DNA of 64,000 bases from Candidatus Latescibacterota bacterium (lineage in GTDB: Bacteria; Latescibacterota; UBA2968; UBA8231), in contig CBDCNM010000001.1 in NCBI GenBank assembly GCA_965219385.1, positions 856,631 through 920,630 of the forward strand, written 5' to 3'. The notes under the pieces were generated by a model that did no database searches, had not been told where the DNA came from, and was given only the letters and a program-made list of their open reading frames with translations. The position numbers and the translations under genes are program-made. The stretch's first letter is position 1. Each line of letters opens with the position of its first letter. Below are positions 28,438 through 38,365 of this stretch, one piece after another.

Positions 28438-28587
28438 AAGCCTTCCTGGCACCATCCCCTCCCGATCTCAAGTCCGGTATATCCACCTTGGCACGGCAGG
28501 TTTTAGGCCTTGATTTTTTTTGTCCAAAGCTTATTTTTATATTTGCCTAAATAATTTAAAAGGTAAGTCTAATTGAGGAGGTCAATA

Positions 28588-29829
28588 ATGAACCTCAGGT
28601 TTGTTTGCCCCGGGCCGCTCGCCTGCGTCTTTCTGGGCGTCCTGGGGTGTGATACCCTGATGACGGAAACCCCGCCGGCAGGAGATGACTTCGAGTCCCC
28701 CTTTGATGGCATGTCGCACGATTTGAACCTGGCTTTTGCCGCAGGGGATGAGAATTTCGAGCGGTTCTTTACCGTGGAAGAGGGGCTGGGGCCGATTTTC
28801 AATAATGTGGGTTGTGAAGGATGTCATCCAGGCGATGGCAGGGGAACCCCTGACCTGGGATTTTTTCGCTTTAGCCAGGGAGGCGACCTGGCCCTGGGCC
28901 TGGGGGGCGCCCAGCACCAGGACAAGGCCATCCCGGGGATTCCCCTTGAAACCATTCCCGCGGGAGTCGATTCATCATTCAGGATGCCGCCGCCCGTATT
29001 CGGGGTGGGGTTGATCGAAGCGATTCACCCGGACACTATTGAGGCCCTCGAGGCACGGCAGAATGCCGATACCGGGACGGCCGAAGACGACGGTATTACC
29101 GGGCGCATCAACTGGGTCACGGCCCCGGATTTTGTCCCCGAATCCCATGTGGGCGGAGGGGCTGGACCTCAACTTGGCAGATTTTCCCGCAAGGCCCAGG
29201 TCTCTTCCCTGCTCCAGCAAGTCGCCGAGGCCTACCAGCAGGACATCGGCATCACCAGCCCTTTCATTCCCGCGGAAAACCCCCACCCCCAAGCCGGGGG
29301 CGTGGCCATCGGCGACAATGTTCCGGACCCGGAAATCCCGGCCTCGACCGTGCTCGAAACCGTGTTGTACGTGCGTTTGCTGGCTCCCCCTGCGCGCGGG
29401 GAAGAAACCGCGGAGGTGCTGCGGGGAGAGGCCATTTTTGCGGAAATCGGCTGTGCGACCTGTCATATCCCGACCCTTGAGACCGGCGCGAGCCCGGTTC
29501 CTCAGCTGAGCAACCAGAATGCCGATCTCTATTCGGATCTGCTGCTCCACGATATGGGGGACGGATCGAACGGCCTGGCCGATAATCGCCCGGACGGAGA
29601 TGCCAGCGGCAGAGAGTGGCGTACCGCGCCCCTGTGGGGGACCCGGATCGTTGCCGACTTCCTGGGCGGTCAGGCTTTTTATTTGCACGATGGCCGCGCG
29701 CAAACCCTGGAAGAAGCGATCCGGTATCACGGCGGAGATGGAAGCGAAGCAAGACTAAGCAAGGAAGAATTTGACAAACTGCCCGCCGGCGAAAAACAGG
29801 CCCTGATCGCCTTCCTCGAATCCCTTTGA
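28588..29829 (+). CDS. Di-heme oxidoreductase (DHOR) family lipoprotein
   Basis: VLGC lipobox; GLGPIFN, CEGCH and CATCH, YSDLLLHDMG, WRTAPLWG, LHDGRA. Confidence 0.9.
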   Translation: MNLRFVCPGPLACVFLGVLGCDTLMTETPPAGDDFESPFDGMSHDLNLAFAAGDENFERFFTVEEGLGPIFNNVGCEGCHPGDGRGTPDLGFFRFSQGGDLALGLGGAQHQDKAIPGIPLETIPAGVDSSFRMPPPVFGVGLIEAIHPDTIEALEARQNADTGTAEDDGITGRINWVTAPDFVPESHVGGGAGPQLGRFSRKAQVSSLLQQVAEAYQQDIGITSPFIPAENPHPQAGGVAIGDNVPDPEIPASTVLETVLYVRLLAPPARGEETAEVLRGEAIFAEIGCATCHIPTLETGASPVPQLSNQNADLYSDLLLHDMGDGSNGLADNRPDGDASGREWRTAPLWGTRIVADFLGGQAFYLHDGRAQTLEEAIRYHGGDGSEARLSKEEFDKLPAGEKQALIAFLESL

Positions 29830-29841
29830 GCGAGGCCAGCC

Positions 29842-30270
29842 ATGGAAGATAAAAAGGTTCCCCGGCGCGAGTTCCTGGCTCGGTTGGCCGCGGGGCTGGT
29901 GGTGGGAGGGCTGCCTAGTTGTGCGCCGGTATTGACCTACCAGGCACACCTAGAAAATGGCCGTATTCTTCTGGATCTCAAGGAGATAGAAGAACTGATC
30001 CAGCCTGGAAAGGCCCTCCTGATAAAGGTGCCGGAATGGTCCGAAACCCTTATTCTGTTCCAGGATGACAACGGCTTTTTCAAGGCTTTGAGTTCCCGTT
30101 GTACTCACCTGGGCTGTCAGGTGAGACCAGCCCGCAACTTCCTGACCTGTCCCTGTCACGGGTCCACCTTTGATCTGCAAGGTGGGGTCGTACGGGGCCC
30201 CGCCCAAAAGCCGCTGCCCCGTTTTCCAGTAGAGGTAAGGGGCCAACAAATCGAAGTTGTGGTTTCTTGA
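29842..30270 (+). CDS. Tat-exported Rieske [2Fe-2S] protein
   Basis: RREFL Tat motif; CTHLGC and CPCHGS. Confidence 0.9.
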   Translation: MEDKKVPRREFLARLAAGLVVGGLPSCAPVLTYQAHLENGRILLDLKEIEELIQPGKALLIKVPEWSETLILFQDDNGFFKALSSRCTHLGCQVRPARNFLTCPCHGSTFDLQGGVVRGPAQKPLPRFPVEVRGQQIEVVVS

Positions 30271-31451
30271 TGGAAAGGACTGCTATGGTACTGCGTCTTC
30301 TTAGAGTGTGGGTGTTTGGGTTGGCCGGGGTGATGGGAGTGGGTGGAATGGGACTTGCCCAGCAGCGCGATCAGCCTCTGGTAAGGGGAGGCATAGACGA
30401 TAAGCCGTTTGTCACGCGCATGGGAAAGGGGCCCCGCATTGGAGGCTACACCGAAGCTCATTTCCGCTACGAGCGCGAGGATGGGATCACCGAGGAACTG
30501 AGCTTTGAAGCCAAACGGTTTAACATTTTTATCTATACCCTGGTTTCCGATCGGGTCCGGGTGGCTTCCGAACTGGAATTCGAGGAGGGGGGCGAGGAGA
30601 TCAAGATAGAGATCGCCCTCCTGGATTTCGAGATCCACCCGGCGCTTACCTTCCGGGGCGGGGTCATTCTCTCGCCGCTGGGGCGGTTCAATCTGGCCCA
30701 CGATAGCCCGGCGCACGACCTGACCGATCGCCCCCTGGTCAGCACTCGAATCATTCCCACCACCCTATCGGAGGCCGGTATGGGGTTTTACGGTGCCTTC
30801 CATCCCACTGCTCAGAGCCGGGTAACCTATGAAGTTTACGGGGTTAACGGGTTCGATGATGATGTGCTCATCGGCGATCCGGACGGCACCCGGATTGCGG
30901 CGGGCAAGGGCAATTTTGAGGACAATAACAACCGGCCCGCCTGGGTAGGGCGCTTTACCTTCAGCCCTCAACCCGCCGGCGAAGTGGGCTTTTCTTTCCA
31001 CACAGGTCCGTACAACACCTGGGACGCCGAGGGGCTTGCCATCGACGAAAAGCGCAGCCTGAGTATCGTGGCGCTGGACTGGGATGCCAGCTGGAAGCGG
31101 TTTGAAGTGCTGGGGGAATGCGCTCGTGCCGCCATTGACGTGCCCCCGGAGAGCGCTGTTTTCCAGGAAAACCAGCAAGGGTTCTACGCTCAGTTGAACG
31201 CCCATTTCGGCAAGGGACTGGTAGCGGCCCTGCCGGCTTCGGTTTTCACCGGCATCGTGCGCTACGGGTCGGTGGATTTCGACGGGGATGCAGAGGGTGA
31301 CGATCATCGCCGGCTCACCCTGGGGCTCAATTTCCGCCCCGAGGAAGATTCGGTTTTCAAGCTCGACTATCAGCGCAACTGGACCAGGGATCCTTTTCAA
31401 AACGAGGGGAAGGGCGCGGCTTTGCTCTTCAGCGCGGCGACCTATTTTTAG
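30267..31451 (+). CDS. Outer membrane porin-like protein
   Basis: Signal peptide; IGGYTE, SELEFE, FKLDYQ; terminal ATYF. Confidence 0.7.
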   Translation: MMERTAMVLRLLRVWVFGLAGVMGVGGMGLAQQRDQPLVRGGIDDKPFVTRMGKGPRIGGYTEAHFRYEREDGITEELSFEAKRFNIFIYTLVSDRVRVASELEFEEGGEEIKIEIALLDFEIHPALTFRGGVILSPLGRFNLAHDSPAHDLTDRPLVSTRIIPTTLSEAGMGFYGAFHPTAQSRVTYEVYGVNGFDDDVLIGDPDGTRIAAGKGNFEDNNNRPAWVGRFTFSPQPAGEVGFSFHTGPYNTWDAEGLAIDEKRSLSIVALDWDASWKRFEVLGECARAAIDVPPESAVFQENQQGFYAQLNAHFGKGLVAALPASVFTGIVRYGSVDFDGDAEGDDHRRLTLGLNFRPEEDSVFKLDYQRNWTRDPFQNEGKGAALLFSAATYF

Positions 31452-31604
31452 AAGCCGTCTCAAAACCCCCACTGACCGGCGCGCAGGGCGGTGGGGGTTG
31501 CGTCAATCCCCGATGCGGCCAGCGGCATAATCGGCCAGGTTTTCTACCATGCCGCGAATCCGCGGCTCGGCGTTGTTGAGGAAGGCCGCGCGGGGACGGA
31601 AGAT

Positions 31605-32447
31605 GTGGAAGAGGAGATGCAGCTGCGGGCGTACAGCCCCAAGACGCGCAAAGCCTATCGCAACCACCTGTTGTGCTTCCGCCGGCATTTCGCCGGGCGG
31701 GTGCTGGCCGCACTCACCGAGGAGGAGATTCGGGCTTATCTGCTGAAGCTGGTCGAGAAGCCGGTCTCCCCTTCGTACCTGAATCAGGCGATCAGCGCCG
31801 TCAAGCTGCTCTACCAAAAAGTCCTCCGTCAGCCTAAAGTTATCGAGCAGGTCCCCCGGCCCCGGAGGAAACGCAAGTTGCCCACGGTCATGAGCCGGGA
31901 AGCGGCCCAAGCCCGGCTCATGACCGTGGGCAATCTGAAGCACCAGACGCTATTGGTCCTGATGTATGCGGACGGGCTGCGGGTGGGCGAGGTGGTGCGG
32001 TTGCAGATCGAGGATATTGACCCAGCGCGGAAGCTGATTCGGGTACACGGCGGCAAGGGGCGCCAGGACCGCTATACCTTGTATACGGATCTAGCAGGTG
32101 AGATGGTTGAGGCGTATATCAAAGAATATCAGCCAGTTAAGTGGCTTTTTGAAGGCCCTAAGCCCGGGGGTCATATAACCGAACGGACGGTTCAGAAGAT
32201 CGTGCAAAGGGCCCGGAAGCAAGCCAATATCGCGTCGCATGTAACGACGCATACGCTGCGGCACTCCTTTGCGACGCATTTGCTTGAGGGAGGTATTGAT
32301 CTGCGATACATTCAGGCGTTGCTGGGGCATACCAGTTCCAAAACGACGGAAGTCTACCCGCATGTAAGCCGGAAGGAATTGGGGCGCATACAGAGCCCTG
32401 TGGATTTGCTGGCGATTGAAAGGAAGGGAGAGAAAGGCGACGGCTAA
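31605..32447 (+). CDS. Tyrosine recombinase (SAM-like N-domain; XerD/integron-integrase-like)
   Basis: LRAYSPKTRKAY, GLRVGE, GKGRQDR, HTLRHSFATHLLE, LLGH, TTEVY; no IntI-specific insertion before WLF; start uncertain because an IS-like end lies at 31451. Confidence 0.9.
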   Translation: MEEEMQLRAYSPKTRKAYRNHLLCFRRHFAGRVLAALTEEEIRAYLLKLVEKPVSPSYLNQAISAVKLLYQKVLRQPKVIEQVPRPRRKRKLPTVMSREAAQARLMTVGNLKHQTLLVLMYADGLRVGEVVRLQIEDIDPARKLIRVHGGKGRQDRYTLYTDLAGEMVEAYIKEYQPVKWLFEGPKPGGHITERTVQKIVQRARKQANIASHVTTHTLRHSFATHLLEGGIDLRYIQALLGHTSSKTTEVYPHVSRKELGRIQSPVDLLAIERKGEKGDG

Positions 32448-32613
32448 CGTCCGCTTTAGTTGATCAACGCTTCGAAGCTTCAGACTATTTTTATAAATTA
32501 TCTATAAACAAATACTTACGTAGATATGATCTTAAATATTATTGCCCGATAAATACTTGCGAATTCTACGGAGCCAAAAATCCGTCCCCATTCGCAAAAG
32601 GGCCGAACGATTG

Positions 32614-32642
32614 TTGACCTACATCGTCTATTTCCCTACTTT
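32614..32642 (+). promoter_or_regulatory. Putative cassette promoter (Pc-like)
   Basis: TTGACC-N17-TACTTT about 80 bp upstream of the first cassette boundary. Confidence 0.45.
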
Positions 32643-32648
32643 GGGTGG

Positions 32649-32727
32649 GTTAGACGACGTACGGCGCCTAACGGTCTTGAAAAGGGCGATAGGCGCCGTA
32701 CGTCGTCGGGAATACATGTAGTTAGAG
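32649..32727 (+). other. Candidate primary recombination site (attI/attC-like hairpin)
   Basis: GTTAGAC at 32649, GCCTAAC at 32666, perfect 18-bp inverted repeat 32653-32670/32690-32707, GTTAGAG at 32721. Confidence 0.6.
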
Positions 32728-32744
32728 GACATGGCAAAGAGAGG

Positions 32745-33305
32745 ATGACGGAACCAAAGGTTACAATTCGGTCACTACGGGTCGGCGATGAACCGGCGGT
32801 CCAACGTTACGCCTCTGATGAACGGGTAGCACGAACTACTACGATTCCCGAGCCCTATCCAGAGGATGGCGCCGCAACGTTTGTCGAACAGGCCGTTGAA
32901 GCCCGCCGAAAGCGAGAGGGTTTCTCCTTTGCCATCCTTGCCGACGGGGAGATGATTGGAGTCCTCGAATTAGGCGCAATTGATTTGGAGAGCCGTAGCA
33001 TCCAATGCGATTACGCCATTGCCTCGGCCCACTGGGGAAAGGGGATTACAACTAAGGCGGCTGCTTTGGCGTTACGCTATGCGTTCCTCGAGCTTGGAAT
33101 GGAAACCGTTCGCTCGGCCTGCTTAAGGCGAAATCCCGCATCAGCTCGTGTCCTTGAAAAGAATGGATTTCTGGAGACCGAAGGGTTCGTCTACAACAGT
33201 TCCAAGTTCAAGGGGGAGGCAGCCCATCAGTTCATACTGACTAAGAAGGCTTGGCTCACGTCTCATGCGAACGAGTCCAATGAGACGCTTTCCGGCCAGG
33301 GTTAA
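32745..33305 (+). CDS. GNAT N-acetyltransferase (RimJ/RimL type), cassette 1
   Basis: IPEPYP, HWGKGITT, NPASARVLEKNGF. Confidence 0.9.
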   Translation: MTEPKVTIRSLRVGDEPAVQRYASDERVARTTTIPEPYPEDGAATFVEQAVEARRKREGFSFAILADGEMIGVLELGAIDLESRSIQCDYAIASAHWGKGITTKAAALALRYAFLELGMETVRSACLRRNPASARVLEKNGFLETEGFVYNSSKFKGEAAHQFILTKKAWLTSHANESNETLSGQG

Positions 33306-33315
33306 GGGAGGTCAC

Positions 33316-33401
33316 GTCCTCTAACACTGTGCCCCCGGCTCCGGGCCCTGCGGGCCCCTCGCGCAACCGCTTCGCGGTTCGGGAGCACTGAGACGTTGGG
33401 C
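33316..33401 (+). repeat. attC-like site 1
   Basis: GTCCTCTAAC is the exact complement of cassette start GTTAGAGGAC (32721); stem GTGCCCCCG/CGGGAGCAC; ends GTTGGGC. Confidence 0.75.
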
Positions 33402-33536
33402 CGCCTCATTACCGGACATGGAATGAGAAACCAGAATTTCGTTTGGGATATCTCCAATGTGAAGAGAACATGCTGCCCTTTCCTTGACTTCCGTTGTGGG
33501 TATCGTACGGACTGAGGAGCAGAGAGAGAACGAGCC

Positions 33537-34673
33537 ATGAAAACAAGCGCTCTGCTCGACAATTTCGTCGCTATGCTAAAAGCCACCCAGTGTCTGAAGT
33601 CAGAGAGACTGGAGCACGCGGTGCGAGCTACCCCACGCCAATGGTTCGTCGACCGAATGCACGCACACTCGAAGGACCACCATTTCATCGACGTAAATGC
33701 ATCTCGTCCCACGAGGCGCCAGCTCGAGCGCATCTACTCAGATGAGGCACTACTCAGCCACCGAGATCCGCCGAGTTCCACGTCACAGCCGTCGCTGGTG
33801 ATGGACATGCTTGAGACGCTAGATATTCGTCCTGGAGCGCGAGTGCTCGAAATCGGTGCGGGCACTGGATGGAATGCCGCGTTGATGGCTCACCTGGTGG
33901 AATCATCTGGGTCCGTGGTCAGCATTGACAACCAGCCAGATGTAGCACGACGTGCACGGCGACACATCAAGCGTGCTGGCCTGAAGAACGTCCACATAGT
34001 TACCGGCGACGGCGCCCACGGGTATCCAAAGGCTGCGCCGTACGACCGCCTGATCACCACTGTCAGCTGTCCGGATGTCTTCCCGGCCTGGTGGCAACAA
34101 CTCAAGCCTGGCGGCATCGCCGTAATCACATTGAGCGAGCTTCCCGGTGAGAGTATGTGCCTGATGCTCAAGCTGCGCAAAACGAAAACTCACCTGAAAG
34201 GAGAGATGGTGAACCTGCCCGGATTCATGCTGTTTACTGGCAAGCATGGTAGCCCACCGACTTCGAGACAGGCTCAGCAGCGGCTTGATGAGCACGACGG
34301 GGCCAGGGTTCGGAAACACCGCGCCTTGTGGGCGATTTTGCCGGGTCAGGGTGACATCGTGATGCGGCGCGACTTGGCTTTTTTCGCCCGTCTGGAGGGA
34401 CTGCGCGTAGAGTCGCTGGAAAACCGATTCGTCCTGTCTTCGCATGACGACAGGGGGCTCTGCGTTCTGGATAAGACACATATCGATGTGGTTGGTAGCA
34501 ACGAGTGCTACAGTCTGTATGAAAAAGTCCAGGATAGGTGGCTGCACCTGGGTGCTCCAAAGCGCCGGCAATACCGCGTGGAGGTGTGGCCGCTGGCCGT
34601 GAAGAAACGCCAGCCTCGCGATGGCTGGCTAGCGCGCAGATCGCACTGCCAGTTAATTTTCCGACTCAAGTAG
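33537..34673 (+). CDS. Protein-L-isoaspartate O-methyltransferase-like, extended; cassette 2
   Basis: SSTSQPSL, VLEIGAGTGWNAA, GDGAHGYPKAAPYDRLI. Confidence 0.85.
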   Translation: MKTSALLDNFVAMLKATQCLKSERLEHAVRATPRQWFVDRMHAHSKDHHFIDVNASRPTRRQLERIYSDEALLSHRDPPSSTSQPSLVMDMLETLDIRPGARVLEIGAGTGWNAALMAHLVESSGSVVSIDNQPDVARRARRHIKRAGLKNVHIVTGDGAHGYPKAAPYDRLITTVSCPDVFPAWWQQLKPGGIAVITLSELPGESMCLMLKLRKTKTHLKGEMVNLPGFMLFTGKHGSPPTSRQAQQRLDEHDGARVRKHRALWAILPGQGDIVMRRDLAFFARLEGLRVESLENRFVLSSHDDRGLCVLDKTHIDVVGSNECYSLYEKVQDRWLHLGAPKRRQYRVEVWPLAVKKRQPRDGWLARRSHCQLIFRLK

Positions 34674-34782
34674 AGGAACTCGCCATACAAAAAGATGAAT
34701 CTATAGGCCGCTTCACGGTCGCGGGATCCCCCAACGTTTACGGGAAAATGGGTTATTCTATCGTACTGGCCGATTCGCCCAC

Positions 34783-34876
34783 GTCCTGTAACACCTGTTT
34801 TTCGCCTCGGCGCTAGCGCGCCTTGGCCCTGCGGGCAACCCGCATTCGCGGGTTCGCAAACCGAAAAACGTTGGAC
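34783..34876 (+). repeat. attC-like site 2
   Basis: CACGTCCTGTAACAC matches site 1 at 14/15; GTTTTTCG/CGAAAAAC stem; shared GGCCCTGCGGGC and AACC(C)GC-TTCGCG(G)GTT hairpins; ends GTTGGAC. Confidence 0.7.
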
Positions 34877-34943
34877 CGCCATAAAGGCCGCCGCCTCATT
34901 AAGTGCAATGCGACAGAAATCGAAGCAACCATTCGACCAGGAT

Positions 34944-36500
34944 ATGTCAGACATTTCGATCATTGGAGTTGCAATCCTCTTAAGAGGCCGTCTGAAAACC
35001 ATGTTTATTCTAAGCGAGTCGTTTGAGTAGCAAGTAAATCATGGCGATCTGAATCAACGCTTCGCTGTGGCGGGTCAACACTTCATAATCTCGGGCATGC
35101 CGACGAAAGTTCATCAACCACGCAAAGGTTCGTTCGACCACCCACCGTCGTTTGAGCGGTGTAAATCCATTTCCTTGTTTAGCGACGACTTCCAAGTCGA
35201 TCTTATGCGTCTTTTTTAAGTCGGCTACCCACCCTTTGAGATCGGCTCCCACATAGCCGCCATCGACCCACAGCTTACGTAGCCTAGGTAGGCCGGGCGC
35301 AACATAGCGGGTCAACACCCGCTTCAAGCCGTCCCGATCGCCCACATCGGCGGCGGTGACTTCCACCGGCCGGATCCATCCCAAGGTATCTACCAACAGG
35401 TGACGTTTGCGTCCTTTGATCTTTTTGCCGGCGTCATAACCGATTGTTTCTCCTTGGGTTGCCGTCTTGATGGTCTGGCTATCGACCCCGCCGGCCGACG
35501 GGGTTAATAGCCGACCCTGCCGGCGGCGTTCCCGCTGGGTGAGTCGATCCAATATCGGCGGCCAGACCCCTTGTAGGCTCCAGCGGCGAAAGTAGTCATA
35601 CACCGTTTTCCACGGCCCCAAACTCGCGGGTAACAAAGCCCAAGGACAGCCGGTCTTGGTCAGATACAAAAGACCATTGATGATCTGGCGTGGATCCCGC
35701 CGCGGGCGGCCCGGCCCGCCAGGAGGCCACGTCGAGGCGGGTAGTAACGGCTTGATTAGACGCCATTGCGCATCGGTTAGATCGGTGGCATATTCGTCGG
35801 CAGGCGTACTCATCATCGGGGCCTTTCTATTCAGATTTTGTGGTGAAACCTGAATATGGCCCGATGAGTACGCCGATTCAAATACGGGCTACATCAAGAG
35901 TTTTCAGACGGCCTCTTAAGAAAGGATCATAGGTTTCTTTTCGAACTCCAGAAGCCGTCGAAATGGAGGCGTCAGCGAGATGGTGTCTTGAGAAGGCTTC
36001 TGAGGATTGGCATGGGCTGTATAGGAGGCACGGTCGAGGAAGGCGAGACCATCGAGGGCGCCCTGTCCAGGGAGGCGCTCGAAGAAATCGGGTGCCAGAT
36101 CGCCTTTGATCGATCAGCGCATCCATTCTCGATAGACCCAGCCGGTGTGGTGTCGCCGCTCCCCTCGCAGAGCATACCCGCAGGGGTACAGTTCGTGTGG
36201 GAAGGGACCGATCCAGGATTTATCGTGGGTGGGAAAGTGGCCGTGTACGTTGGCCATACGCTTGGGCGGGCCGAACCGAGCGATCTTCCGGCCATAGTGA
36301 AGCTTGAACCGGATCTCTTCTACGATCTTGGCACACGACCTCTCGCTATTGAGGAGGTAGAGCAGCGAGGAGGTATTCTGCAAGAGCGGCAAAGGATTCC
36401 GCGCTCTGCTCGATTGACGCCGGTGGGAACAGCCAGCAGGCTTCTGGAGTTACGGCGACTGCATCCTGAGTTACTCCAAGGCATTGTGGGTGAGTTCTGA
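34944..36500 (+). pseudogene. Nudix hydrolase (cassette 3) split by IS5
   Basis: Removing the IS restores the frame MSDISIIGVAILL|RKDHRFLFELQKP... into GGTVEEGETIEGALSREALEEIG (Nudix box). Confidence 0.85.
34984..35915 (-). mobile_element. IS5-family element (single ORF, IS1031-like)
   Basis: Perfect 16-bp TIR GAGGCCGTCTGAAAAC; TTAA on both flanks; transposase 35010-35816 (YATDLTDAQW, DSQT, GRKRHLLVD, RWVVERT). Confidence 0.95.
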
Positions 36501-36536
36501 TGGCGCGGCGACCGCCCGCTTGCCGCACAAGCACTT

Positions 36537-36885
36537 TGTTTTTCCTTGCGTTGCCGTTTTGATAGGCTGGCTATCGACCCTGCCGGCCGACGGCGTCGGC
36601 TTCCGCCCTTGGCGTTTGCGCGCCTGTCGGGTCAGCGCCTCAAGCAGCCGTGTCCAGACCCCCTGTCGACGCCAGGGATTGAAATAATCATACCCTGCTT
36701 TCCATTGACCGAAATCGGCCGGCATCATCGACCCCTGGCCACCGGTCTTGGTGACATCATACCATGGATCAGCGGGCGCTGCTCACAGGGCGGTCGGCCC
36801 GGTCCCCCAGGACGCCACTTGCGGGGCGGCAGCAAGGGCTAGAGGTGGTGCCATTGCTCATCGGTCAAATCCGTCGGATATTGGT
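36537..36885 (-). mobile_element. Degenerate IS5 transposase 5' remnant
   Basis: YPTDLTDEQW...stop; WKAGYDYF, DSQPIKTATQG; homologous to 35010-35816. Confidence 0.8.
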
Positions 36886-37044
36886 GGGGAGTTCCCTTTT
36901 TTCAAGCCCCATCTACGCGAAAGGGGTTTCCTTCTCAGGCAGAACTTGCCTGAATCTGGCCGTCGAGATATTATTAGGACTAAACAAGGGGCTGCAAAAT
37001 GCCGCCCCTTGGCTGTTTTCTCCACCGCTTATTCGAGGTCGAAA

Positions 37045-37635: not shown

Positions 37636-38365
37636 CGGGAGGATAAAGGTGTACAGTCTTGTGGCATTTCTGCTCTGCCTGCTGGTCGGTTGCAGCCAGA
37701 ACTACAGCGAAAAAAGCGTCTCCGAAGCCCTGGTGGAAAAGAAGTACCAGCCTGTGAAGGATCGCGCTGAGCTTGAGGATGTAGCGCCAGCAGGGAAGTA
37801 CCAGCCTGTGAAGGATCGCGCTGAGCTTGAGGATGTAGCGCCAGCAGGCTCCGACCAGGAATCCGGGACCGGCGCTTCTGGTACCCGGCAGCGCCTCAAA
37901 GGGATCAGCGTGGTGACCCCTCAGGGGTGGCGCCGCACAACTCCGACCAGCAGCATGCGGATTGCCGAATACCTTCTACCCGGAGGCACAGAGGGTCATG
38001 CCGATGCCTCGCTTGCGGTATTTTACTTTGGTCCCAACCAGGGAGGGACCATCGAGGCCAATATCGACCGCTGGTACGGACAATTCAGCCAGCCCGATGG
38101 AGGGTCTACCAGGGACAGAGCCCGACGCTGGGAAAAGCAGGTCGGGACCATACTCGTAACCCTGGTAGATATCAGCGGGACCTATAGTGGTGGAATGGGC
38201 CCCATGGGCCAATCCCAGGCTCCTAAAACAGGACAGCGAATGCTCGGCGCCATTGCGCCGGCTCCGACCGGCCTGTTTTTTTTCAAATTGATCGGACCCA
38301 CCTCGACCATCGAATTGTGGTCGGAGAGTTTTGTCCATTTCATCGATAGCATTCGTGCTGAATGA
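37616..38365 (+). CDS. Hypothetical lipoprotein
   Basis: LVGC lipobox; SSMRIAEY, GGTIEANIDRWYGQF, FFKLIGP; start uncertain. Confidence 0.7.
   Translation: MRRIVRSGRIKVYSLVAFLLCLLVGCSQNYSEKSVSEALVEKKYQPVKDRAELEDVAPAGKYQPVKDRAELEDVAPAGSDQESGTGASGTRQRLKGISVVTPQGWRRTTPTSSMRIAEYLLPGGTEGHADASLAVFYFGPNQGGTIEANIDRWYGQFSQPDGGSTRDRARRWEKQVGTILVTLVDISGTYSGGMGPMGQSQAPKTGQRMLGAIAPAPTGLFFFKLIGPTSTIELWSESFVHFIDSIRAE
37741..37848 (+). repeat. Perfect 54-bp tandem duplication (2 copies, in frame)
   Basis: KYQPVKDRAELEDVAPAG x2. Confidence 0.95.

Follow-up and report, generated by a model that had tools for sequence, protein, structure and literature searches.

Can gene cassettes be captured by a tyrosine recombinase that lacks the insertion (I2) of the integron integrases (IntI)? 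The question is raised by a stretch of 64,000 nucleotides from Candidatus Latescibacterota bacterium (GenBank assembly GCA_965219385.1, contig CBDCNM010000001.1, positions 856,631 to 920,630 of the forward strand; hereafter the window), in which a tyrosine recombinase gene is followed by an array of three accessory genes (positions 31,605 to 36,500 of the window). A first-pass annotation, made by a model from the letters and their open reading frames (ORFs), had proposed a cassette-capture system distinct from classical integrons. Having compared the locus with the rest of its genome (G000), with relatives across the phylum and with known systems, we uphold this distinction, and we consider it probable that a family of insertion-less recombinases runs cassettes through folded sites. 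None of the outcomes that the annotation had listed as refuting its reading came about.

A decaying cassette array next to an insertion-less recombinase

Profile, alignment and tree placed the recombinase gene (31605..32447, forward strand) in the long subtype A of an insertion-less family related to the integron integrases. The catalytic residues (R, K, H-x-x-R, H and Y) are all present. The IntI model TIGR02249 matched the protein in two pieces with 198.8 bits, below its cut-off of 265. The stretch from K-x-R to H-x-L-R-H spans 59 residues in this protein and in most of its family, versus 99–100 residues in canonical IntI of the same phylum, and an alignment with VchIntIA (PDB 2a3v), the best solved relative both by profile and by Foldseek, shows a gap in place of the ~40-residue I2 insertion, which is missing from the whole family. 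The protein is thus not a canonical IntI, as the first-pass annotation had held.

While the catalytic motifs noted in that annotation are kept, the gene is 5'-truncated and carries atypical substitutions. Its closest relatives are 379–391 amino acids long and ~70% identical, and ~100 of their N-terminal residues are absent here; no trace of the missing codons was found elsewhere in the genome. The left end of a MITE/REP-like miniature repeat with many genome copies (31450..31490, forward strand, right limit approximate) occupies the place of the 5' part, and contigs of two sequencing runs break at this repeat (31468–31469). Next to the catalytic Y, the protein has a P where 18 of 19 relatives have a T, and in another conserved column it has an R where all 19 have a hydrophobic residue. 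A perfect 22-bp inverted repeat within the gene (31878..31933), found by repeat search and alignment, overlaps atypical residues and is probably a template-switch mutation. Since contigs of other sequencing runs carry the same letters across most of the gene, we ascribe the truncation and substitutions to decay, not to assembly error. Judging by its sequence, the enzyme is probably dead, and we therefore regard the window locus as a relic.

Downstream, on the same strand, lies a leader with an attI-like putative docking site of subtype A (32448..32723; crossover G|TT at 32721/32722), conserved copies of which occur elsewhere. The leader contains a hairpin with 26-bp arms (32653–32707; z of −8.9/−10.4), ~39 nt of which are an addition without counterpart in three sister leaders. 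Four orphan copies of the leader head other arrays of the genome, and one copy follows a relic recombinase in locus L001. In the genome and in the loci of relatives alike, conserved leaders end in G|TT ahead of variable first cassettes. We rejected a reading of the docking-site palindrome as a LexA box, as there was no enrichment (13 versus 36 control matches).

Behind the docking site, GTT cores stand at 32721, 33395 and 34870, where the first-pass annotation had placed them, and the cargo it named was matched by Pfam models. Cassette 1 (32722..33395, forward strand) carries a GNAT acetyltransferase gene (PF13302; ORF 32745–33305) and is recognized by its recurrence and by its ends, positions 32721–32730 and 33316–33325, which are exact 10-nt reverse complements. 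Its attC-like site (33316..33401, forward strand), supported by fold and profile, consists of TAAC, a 3-nt spacer, a 9-bp stem, a branched tip, a 6-nt spacer and GTT. Cassette 2 (33409..34870, forward strand) carries a PCMT-like methyltransferase gene (PF01135; ORF 33537–34673; Pfam and NCBIfam matches); with a 13-nt insert set aside, its start matches its own inverse core at five of six scored positions. Its attC-like site (34783..34876, forward strand) is a member of the same family with an atypical stem register (profile E of 2.6e-16; fold z of −2.6). Cassette 3 (34899..36536, forward strand) carries a split Nudix gene (PF00293; 34944 to 36500), and its attC-like site is lost past the first bases of the inverse core; a related cassette start was found at C2:757657 of this genome. 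GC content across the array is 51–59%.

The first-pass annotation had each gene start after a GTT core, which is correct for cassette 1, but cassettes 2 and 3 have a short piece between the G and their own TTA start: a 13-nt short form (33396..33408, forward strand) of a piece found at ~17 junctions of the genome, and a 28-nt long form (34871..34898, forward strand). The insert sits exactly between G and TT, at attC-like and attI-like junctions and before many different cassettes; none was found at the junctions in 15 loci of relatives. Its likely origin is a docking site whose two crossover points lie 27 nt apart, from which later cassette moves would have carried it along. That it is the end of a larger insertion sequence (IS) was rejected: a long form of this kind was not found in the genome, and four variant copies are located within a family of repeated, unrelated genes. 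That family numbers more than 15 tandemly repeated genes, each with ~320 codons and encoding a protein that looks secreted (C2:211k, C2:4105–4204k and others).

The three-gene array is not intact. An IS5-family element (34978..35921, reverse strand) with 22-bp terminal inverted repeats, a transposase gene (35010–35816) and seven more copies at 99% identity in the genome splits the Nudix gene, and a second, degraded IS5-family remnant (36537..36920, reverse strand, right limit approximate) ends the array and replaces the third site. Contigs join across the first element in three of four runs, and one run's contig continues from 36536 into an attC-like arm that completes an inverse core matching the start of cassette 3. 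Collectively, these results establish the window array as a real but decaying three-gene cassette array that IS5 elements are eroding. A scan for promoters and terminators gave chance level only, and for this reason we claim no cassette promoter. No precise cassette excision or circle was seen among the contigs of the four runs; contigs drop rare variants, and this is no evidence of inactivity.

A genome-wide site family and moving cassettes

A profile grown from the two window sites found 51 matches in the genome, 49 of them at E < 1e-3, in 15 clusters, and none in the reversed genome; the further site copies that had been anticipated do exist. Within this family, cassette starts match their own ends: at 4.56 of six variable positions in this genome, versus 2.51 when shuffled (27 adjacent pairs), and at 3.88 versus 2.63 in relatives (26 pairs), with none of 10,000 shuffles reaching the observed value in either set. 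Three of the 90 sites were left unparsed in this test, and cassettes of more than 2.6 kb unpaired. Cassettes differ freely in the three bases that follow GTTA, but within a cassette these bases match.

Cassettes have moved with exact ends. The same cassette is found behind attI in one place and behind attC in another, identity starting at the G|TT junction, at 94–98% within the genome, at 90% against genome G056 and at 99% against G015. Such sharing extends across genera and families (90–99%), and cassette 1 recurs whole (1–674 of 674 nt; 87% identity) between other neighbors in G032.

A second platform in this genome (C2:1317337–1341163; L003 and L004) has a recombinase of subtype B that is 49% identical to the window protein and shows an apparent frameshift near its C-terminal GTDL motif. 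The platform has 17 profile sites, arranged in a divergent array that spans 22 kb, and half of a subtype-A leader lies in reverse orientation at its 3' end. In addition, six docking sites that lack a recombinase stand at the head of arrays of their own or of single cassettes, four of type A (C2:750.6k, 1621.9k, 2195.3k and 3691.4k) and two of type B (C1:488.4k and C2:4422.8k).

Several side observations concern individual cassettes. A two-site block occurs in three 100% identical, IS5-flanked copies (C1:1325.6k–1326.4k, C2:3384.3k–3385.1k and C2:4479.1k), one of which reaches a contig end; this is a transposon-borne cassette duplication. The methyltransferase gene of cassette 2 is found at 88–89% identity, without cassette ends or family sites, in five genomes of genus g13 (L193–L197), and the three complete genomes of that genus that were searched gave no family recombinase; it is possible that this is the source gene or an escaped cassette. 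Relatives of the GNAT gene of cassette 1 (71–73%) are fixed behind the same upstream gene across genus g19 (L182–L191), also without family sites. A search of Rfam gave no relevant family, only three chance matches.

Two recombinase subtypes head the same sites

Of 168 genomes from this phylum, 28 gave matches to the recombinase family profile, a count that includes members paired with IS91-type transposases. A contig scan with the single window protein found only two loci, and 10 of 136 proteins were left out of the tree as too short. Among 21 subtype-A loci of relatives, 13 have a co-oriented family site downstream, four end at a contig edge and four have none by profile; the first genes after the recombinase differ between loci, bearing out the variable cassette content behind orthologous recombinases. 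Across many genomes, arrays begin at conserved docking sites no more than ~300 nt from the short recombinase.

Subtype B is a derived subtype: it nests, with a support of 1.00, inside the clade of the phylum, has a docking consensus of its own and heads arrays of the same sites. Its arrays are divergent at six of six loci of relatives, as at the second platform here. The co-oriented layout that had been singled out thus holds for the window but is not defining, and co-oriented IntI integrons are also described (PMC4889954). At L035 of G056, a subtype-B recombinase has family sites to its left and right, all of them on the same strand, placing this platform inside an array.

Full-length subtype-A relatives have an N-terminal domain that resembles HARP and that the window enzyme has lost, and in one alternative the system would be as we propose, with this domain functionally replacing I2 and being required to handle the branched hairpin. 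The resemblance itself is slight: Pfam HARP matched 39 of 86 full-length relatives at E ≤ 0.05, the best at 1.2e-4 and under the cut-off. The predicted domain model ranked the T4 MotA C-terminal domain (Z 5.6, rmsd 2.6 over 65 residues) and the UvsW N-terminus (Z 4.9) first among structural matches, all weak, while Foldseek placed SMARCAL1 HARP at ranks 2–3 with a weak E of 0.45–0.7; the best ESM Atlas matches of the domain (0.88) were unnamed clusters. Against a required role stands subtype B, which lacks the domain, heads the same sites, shares cassette DNA of 98.6–99% identity with this genome, and is the sole family member found in five near-complete genomes without IntI (G002, G013, G015, G018 and G056). 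In addition, the N-terminal extension of a related recombinase from Bacteroidales (discussed below) gave no HARP signal. On these grounds, the domain is probably not a required substitute for I2, and we hold this alternative to be doubtful.

A lopsided site geometry

The attC-like sites pair in an unusual register. Across 81 sites with clean cores, a lopsided model with three additional bases on the right arm gave 5.3 of seven pairs, versus 2.5 of seven for the classical arrangement with 5/6 spacers and one bulged base. In the +3 register, 76 sites paired at 5.5 of eight positions versus 3.56 when arms were swapped between sites (0 of 2,000 shuffles), and register 0 gave no pairing signal; this test set aside 8 of 84 distinct sites with unclean or mis-parsed cores. 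As the pairing holds although three or four pair types occur at most stem positions, we conclude that the stems change in sequence but retain their structure. In 60 of the 76 sites, it is the bottom strand that folds better. The sites are 80–100 nt long; their two core boxes, of ~10–12 nt each versus 7 nt in classical attC, flank a lopsided loop, with 3–4 nt on one arm and 6–7 nt on the other, and an unbulged 8–9-bp stem. Classical attC sites are described as having three features, extrahelical bases, an unpaired spacer and a terminal structure (PMC5027507); by comparison, the extrahelical bases seem to be absent from the inner box, and the unpaired spacer seems enlarged. We rejected the idea that the missing bulge follows from loss of the VchIntIA beta-hairpin tryptophan, because canonical IntI of the phylum are also without it (14 R and 1 H of 15). 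A generic geometry scan gave no sites at XerC and XerD, single upstream false matches at five unrelated recombinase loci, and missed the sites at L119 and L163, so the counts in our argument rest on the profile.

These observations bear on a second alternative, that recombination is double-stranded and Xer/dif-like and the hairpin look arises from two pairs of inverted binding boxes. The enzyme lacks I2, an archaeal XerA model scores it much like the IntI model (199.4 versus 198.8 bits), and the core boxes are conserved in sequence over ~12 nt, all of which would suit such a scheme. By contrast, the inner stem varies in sequence while its pairing is kept, and the bases after GTTA are free between cassettes yet match within each. 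Double-strand exchange normally needs spacer homology, and partner sites share none. We therefore consider this scheme improbable.

From the observed anatomy, site family, covariation, exact-end movement of cassettes, co-occurrence with the recombinase family and lack of IntI, we infer that the enzyme catalyzes the movement, on a single strand of its choice and with replicative resolution. In the mechanism we propose, a tyrosine recombinase of the clade next to IntI, devoid of I2, would insert and excise single-gene cassettes at the adjoining docking site. The recombinase would most likely bind the folded bottom strand of the cassette end and exchange one strand pair between G and TT with the docking site or another hairpin, as IntI does. 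This crossover position is supported by an AT-start variant that goes with the downstream cassette, and by the junction insert, which ends in A before the TT of the cassette. The junction would then be resolved by replication, a step taken from integrons, in which replicative resolution is established. The lopsided loop may be read in place of flipped-out bases, and I2 would therefore be unnecessary; the loop and the long core boxes together could set the choice of strand and orientation.

Canonical integrases and points against the proposal

Canonical IntI was found in 19 of the 168 genomes, 17 of them over the cut-off. That such an enzyme, from outside the assembly or since lost, moves the cassettes while the short recombinase is a bystander is very improbable: although this genome is 94% complete and both its short copies look broken, no IntI was found in it or, at E ≤ 1e-60, in six single-contig genomes with arrays beside the short recombinase (G002, G015, G018, G056, G059 and G127), and none of 15 canonical IntI loci of the phylum has a family site by profile, six of them showing classical attC, in contrast to the arrays that start beside the short recombinase. 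From this absence at IntI loci, we conclude that there are two systems, each with its matching sites, and that a single genome sometimes holds both.

Several points weigh against our proposal that the recombinase family runs the cassettes. All support is comparative, and no recombination was observed. The two palindromic sites of the window, which had been singled out at first sight, do fold as hairpins and belong to the family, but taken singly they fold modestly (z of −1.5 to −2.6); they carry weight because of the genome-wide family. Most of the 15 site clusters have no adjoining recombinase, and both recombinase copies in this genome look broken. Both systems are present in G008, G021, G023, G029 and G098. 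Canonical IntI forms the sister clade of the insertion-less clade (support 0.93), and the base of the latter is weakly supported (0.00 in one tree, 0.84 in another). The members of a large sister subclade pair with IS91-type transposases and lack arrays, so membership of the insertion-less clade does not in itself predict cassette capture. Lastly, IntI is described as needing its extra domain for activity, in literature cited by PMC4889954 and PMC8138268.

Elsewhere in the window, a lipoprotein-like ORF contains an exact 54-bp tandem duplication (37741–37848). Three genes upstream of the recombinase (28573–31451) presumably encode di-haem thiol-oxidoreductase-type, Rieske and porin-like proteins, as labeled by eye.

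Relation to known systems

With classical integrons, the system shares a docking site beside the gene, a G|TT crossover, single-gene cassettes with complementary ends, hairpin sites and orphan arrays like the clusters of attC sites lacking integrases (CALIN). It differs in the insertion-less enzyme, the +3 lopsided loop, the absence of an inner-box bulge, the longer core boxes and, in subtype A, the HARP-like domain. We call it integron-like, as it works like an integron, but set it apart by two defining features, the insertion and the site geometry.

The IS91-paired tyrosine recombinases belong to the same insertion-less clade, with 41–45% identity and the same 59-residue segment. They differ in being multi-copy, with the gene for a zinc-binding IS91-type transposase directly downstream and no docking site or array of their own; a motif scan for that transposase was negative for the window and its subclade. 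Among the IS91-coupled members (L133–L135, L120, L202 and many metagenome loci), one has a cassette array as its neighbor (L134) and another adjoins a canonical intI (L165).

The closest published layout is rAID-1 of gut Bacteroidales, which has a 5' XerD-like recombinase, co-directional genes and integron-like intergenic repeats (Ross et al., 10.1101/471110). No recombination mechanism or site structure was found in that report, whose supplement may describe the repeats further. The window shares the XerD-like 5' recombinase, the co-directional genes (three here) and the integron-like repeats. The published criteria for rAID-1 are a recombinase more than 44% identical to BF9343_RS08045, at least two co-directional downstream genes and genes of at most 41% GC (10.1101/471110). 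To make the comparison, we used a rAID-type locus of Parabacteroides distasonis (L200), which encodes a recombinase with Tdi1 and SMI1/KNR4 immunity genes. Its recombinase falls in the same insertion-less clade (support 0.84) and, as a proxy for BF9343_RS08045, is 37–38% identical to the window protein; cassette starts there match their own ends over 8–11 nt in seven of seven consecutive units. The rAID-1 sites are ~45 nt long with an A|TTA core, versus 80–100 nt and G|TTA here. The rAID-1 cargo is low-GC immunity genes, whereas the window carries enzymes (GNAT, PCMT-like and Nudix) at 51–59% GC. rAID-1 resides in Bacteroidales, the window system in another phylum, where close homologues are from Latescibacteria and a divergent subtype occurs. 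Because GC, cargo, host and identity differ, we regard the window system as a relative of rAID-1, not a member. To have called it poorly described was fair, with the reservation that it is not undescribed. Our literature search, which was not exhaustive and had itself missed the rAID-1 paper, found no description of the site geometry, enzyme activity, HARP fusion or tet(X) as a cassette.

A link to resistance genes

On plasmids of Acinetobacter and from soil, tet(X3) and tet(X5) are preceded by a TnpF/XerD remnant that is 47% identical to the window recombinase over 222 residues with one gap. Behind the remnant come a palindrome and the cassette start GTTATGTGCCAT, which also occurs in the arrays of this genome. 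In both tet(X3) and tet(X5), the same cassette start stands right after the palindrome, downstream of the truncated TnpF (L161:5700–7180, L118:4684–4874 and L178:2265–2430), and TnpF matches occur in 50 Acinetobacter plasmid records. TnpF differs from the window system in being a 5'-truncated remnant on other mobile elements, with Bacteroidota-type low-GC sites of 120–190 nt. On plasmid pWB8 of Sphingobacterium faecium (L179:6877–8340 and 1131–2330), the tigecycline-resistance gene tet(X2) lies between two complete lopsided 4/7 sites, and 11 of the 12 nt at its start match its own end; blaOXA-347 likewise lies between complete lopsided sites (10 of 12 nt).

Homology-free integration is reported from Riemerella for a resistance gene that has 27 bp of upstream sequence and, downstream of it, an attC-like hairpin of 140 bp; the account names no enzyme where the uptake is described (PMC13148043). 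For a 2026 Flavobacterium genome with three tet(X2) copies, IntegronFinder is reported to have found no integron (PMC13700133).

Implications

The co-oriented layout behind a XerD-like recombinase had already been published for rAID-1 (10.1101/471110). New here are the HARP-less subtype that heads the same arrays, and tet(X2) and blaOXA-347 in cassettes of lopsided design. On balance, we lean towards a second integron class, independent of I2 and of extrahelical bases, that occurs in several phyla and has rAID-1 as its Bacteroidales branch; neither orientation nor the HARP-like domain would define it, and it would be the capture system behind tet(X), blaOXA-347 and other resistance genes of Bacteroidota, including the homology-free uptake in Riemerella. 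Such a link to tet(X) and blaOXA-347 would account for the assembly of these genes in the Bacteroidota reservoir and would supply a marker for surveillance.

A standard survey judged insertion-less recombinases near attC sites not to be integron integrases (PMC4889954). Searches for integrons demand both the IntI insertion and attC sites of classical geometry, and would largely overlook a parallel system whose sites have a shape of their own. The value of the window locus lies in the paired A and B subtypes and in the clean contrast with canonical integrons within one phylum. Should the enzyme recombine folded single strands although it lacks I2, one would have to revise the view of I2 as the enabler of hairpin recombination, and the origin of integrons from Xer-like enzymes would become testable. 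A second integron class, if true, would offer a living model for the transition between Xer and IntI.

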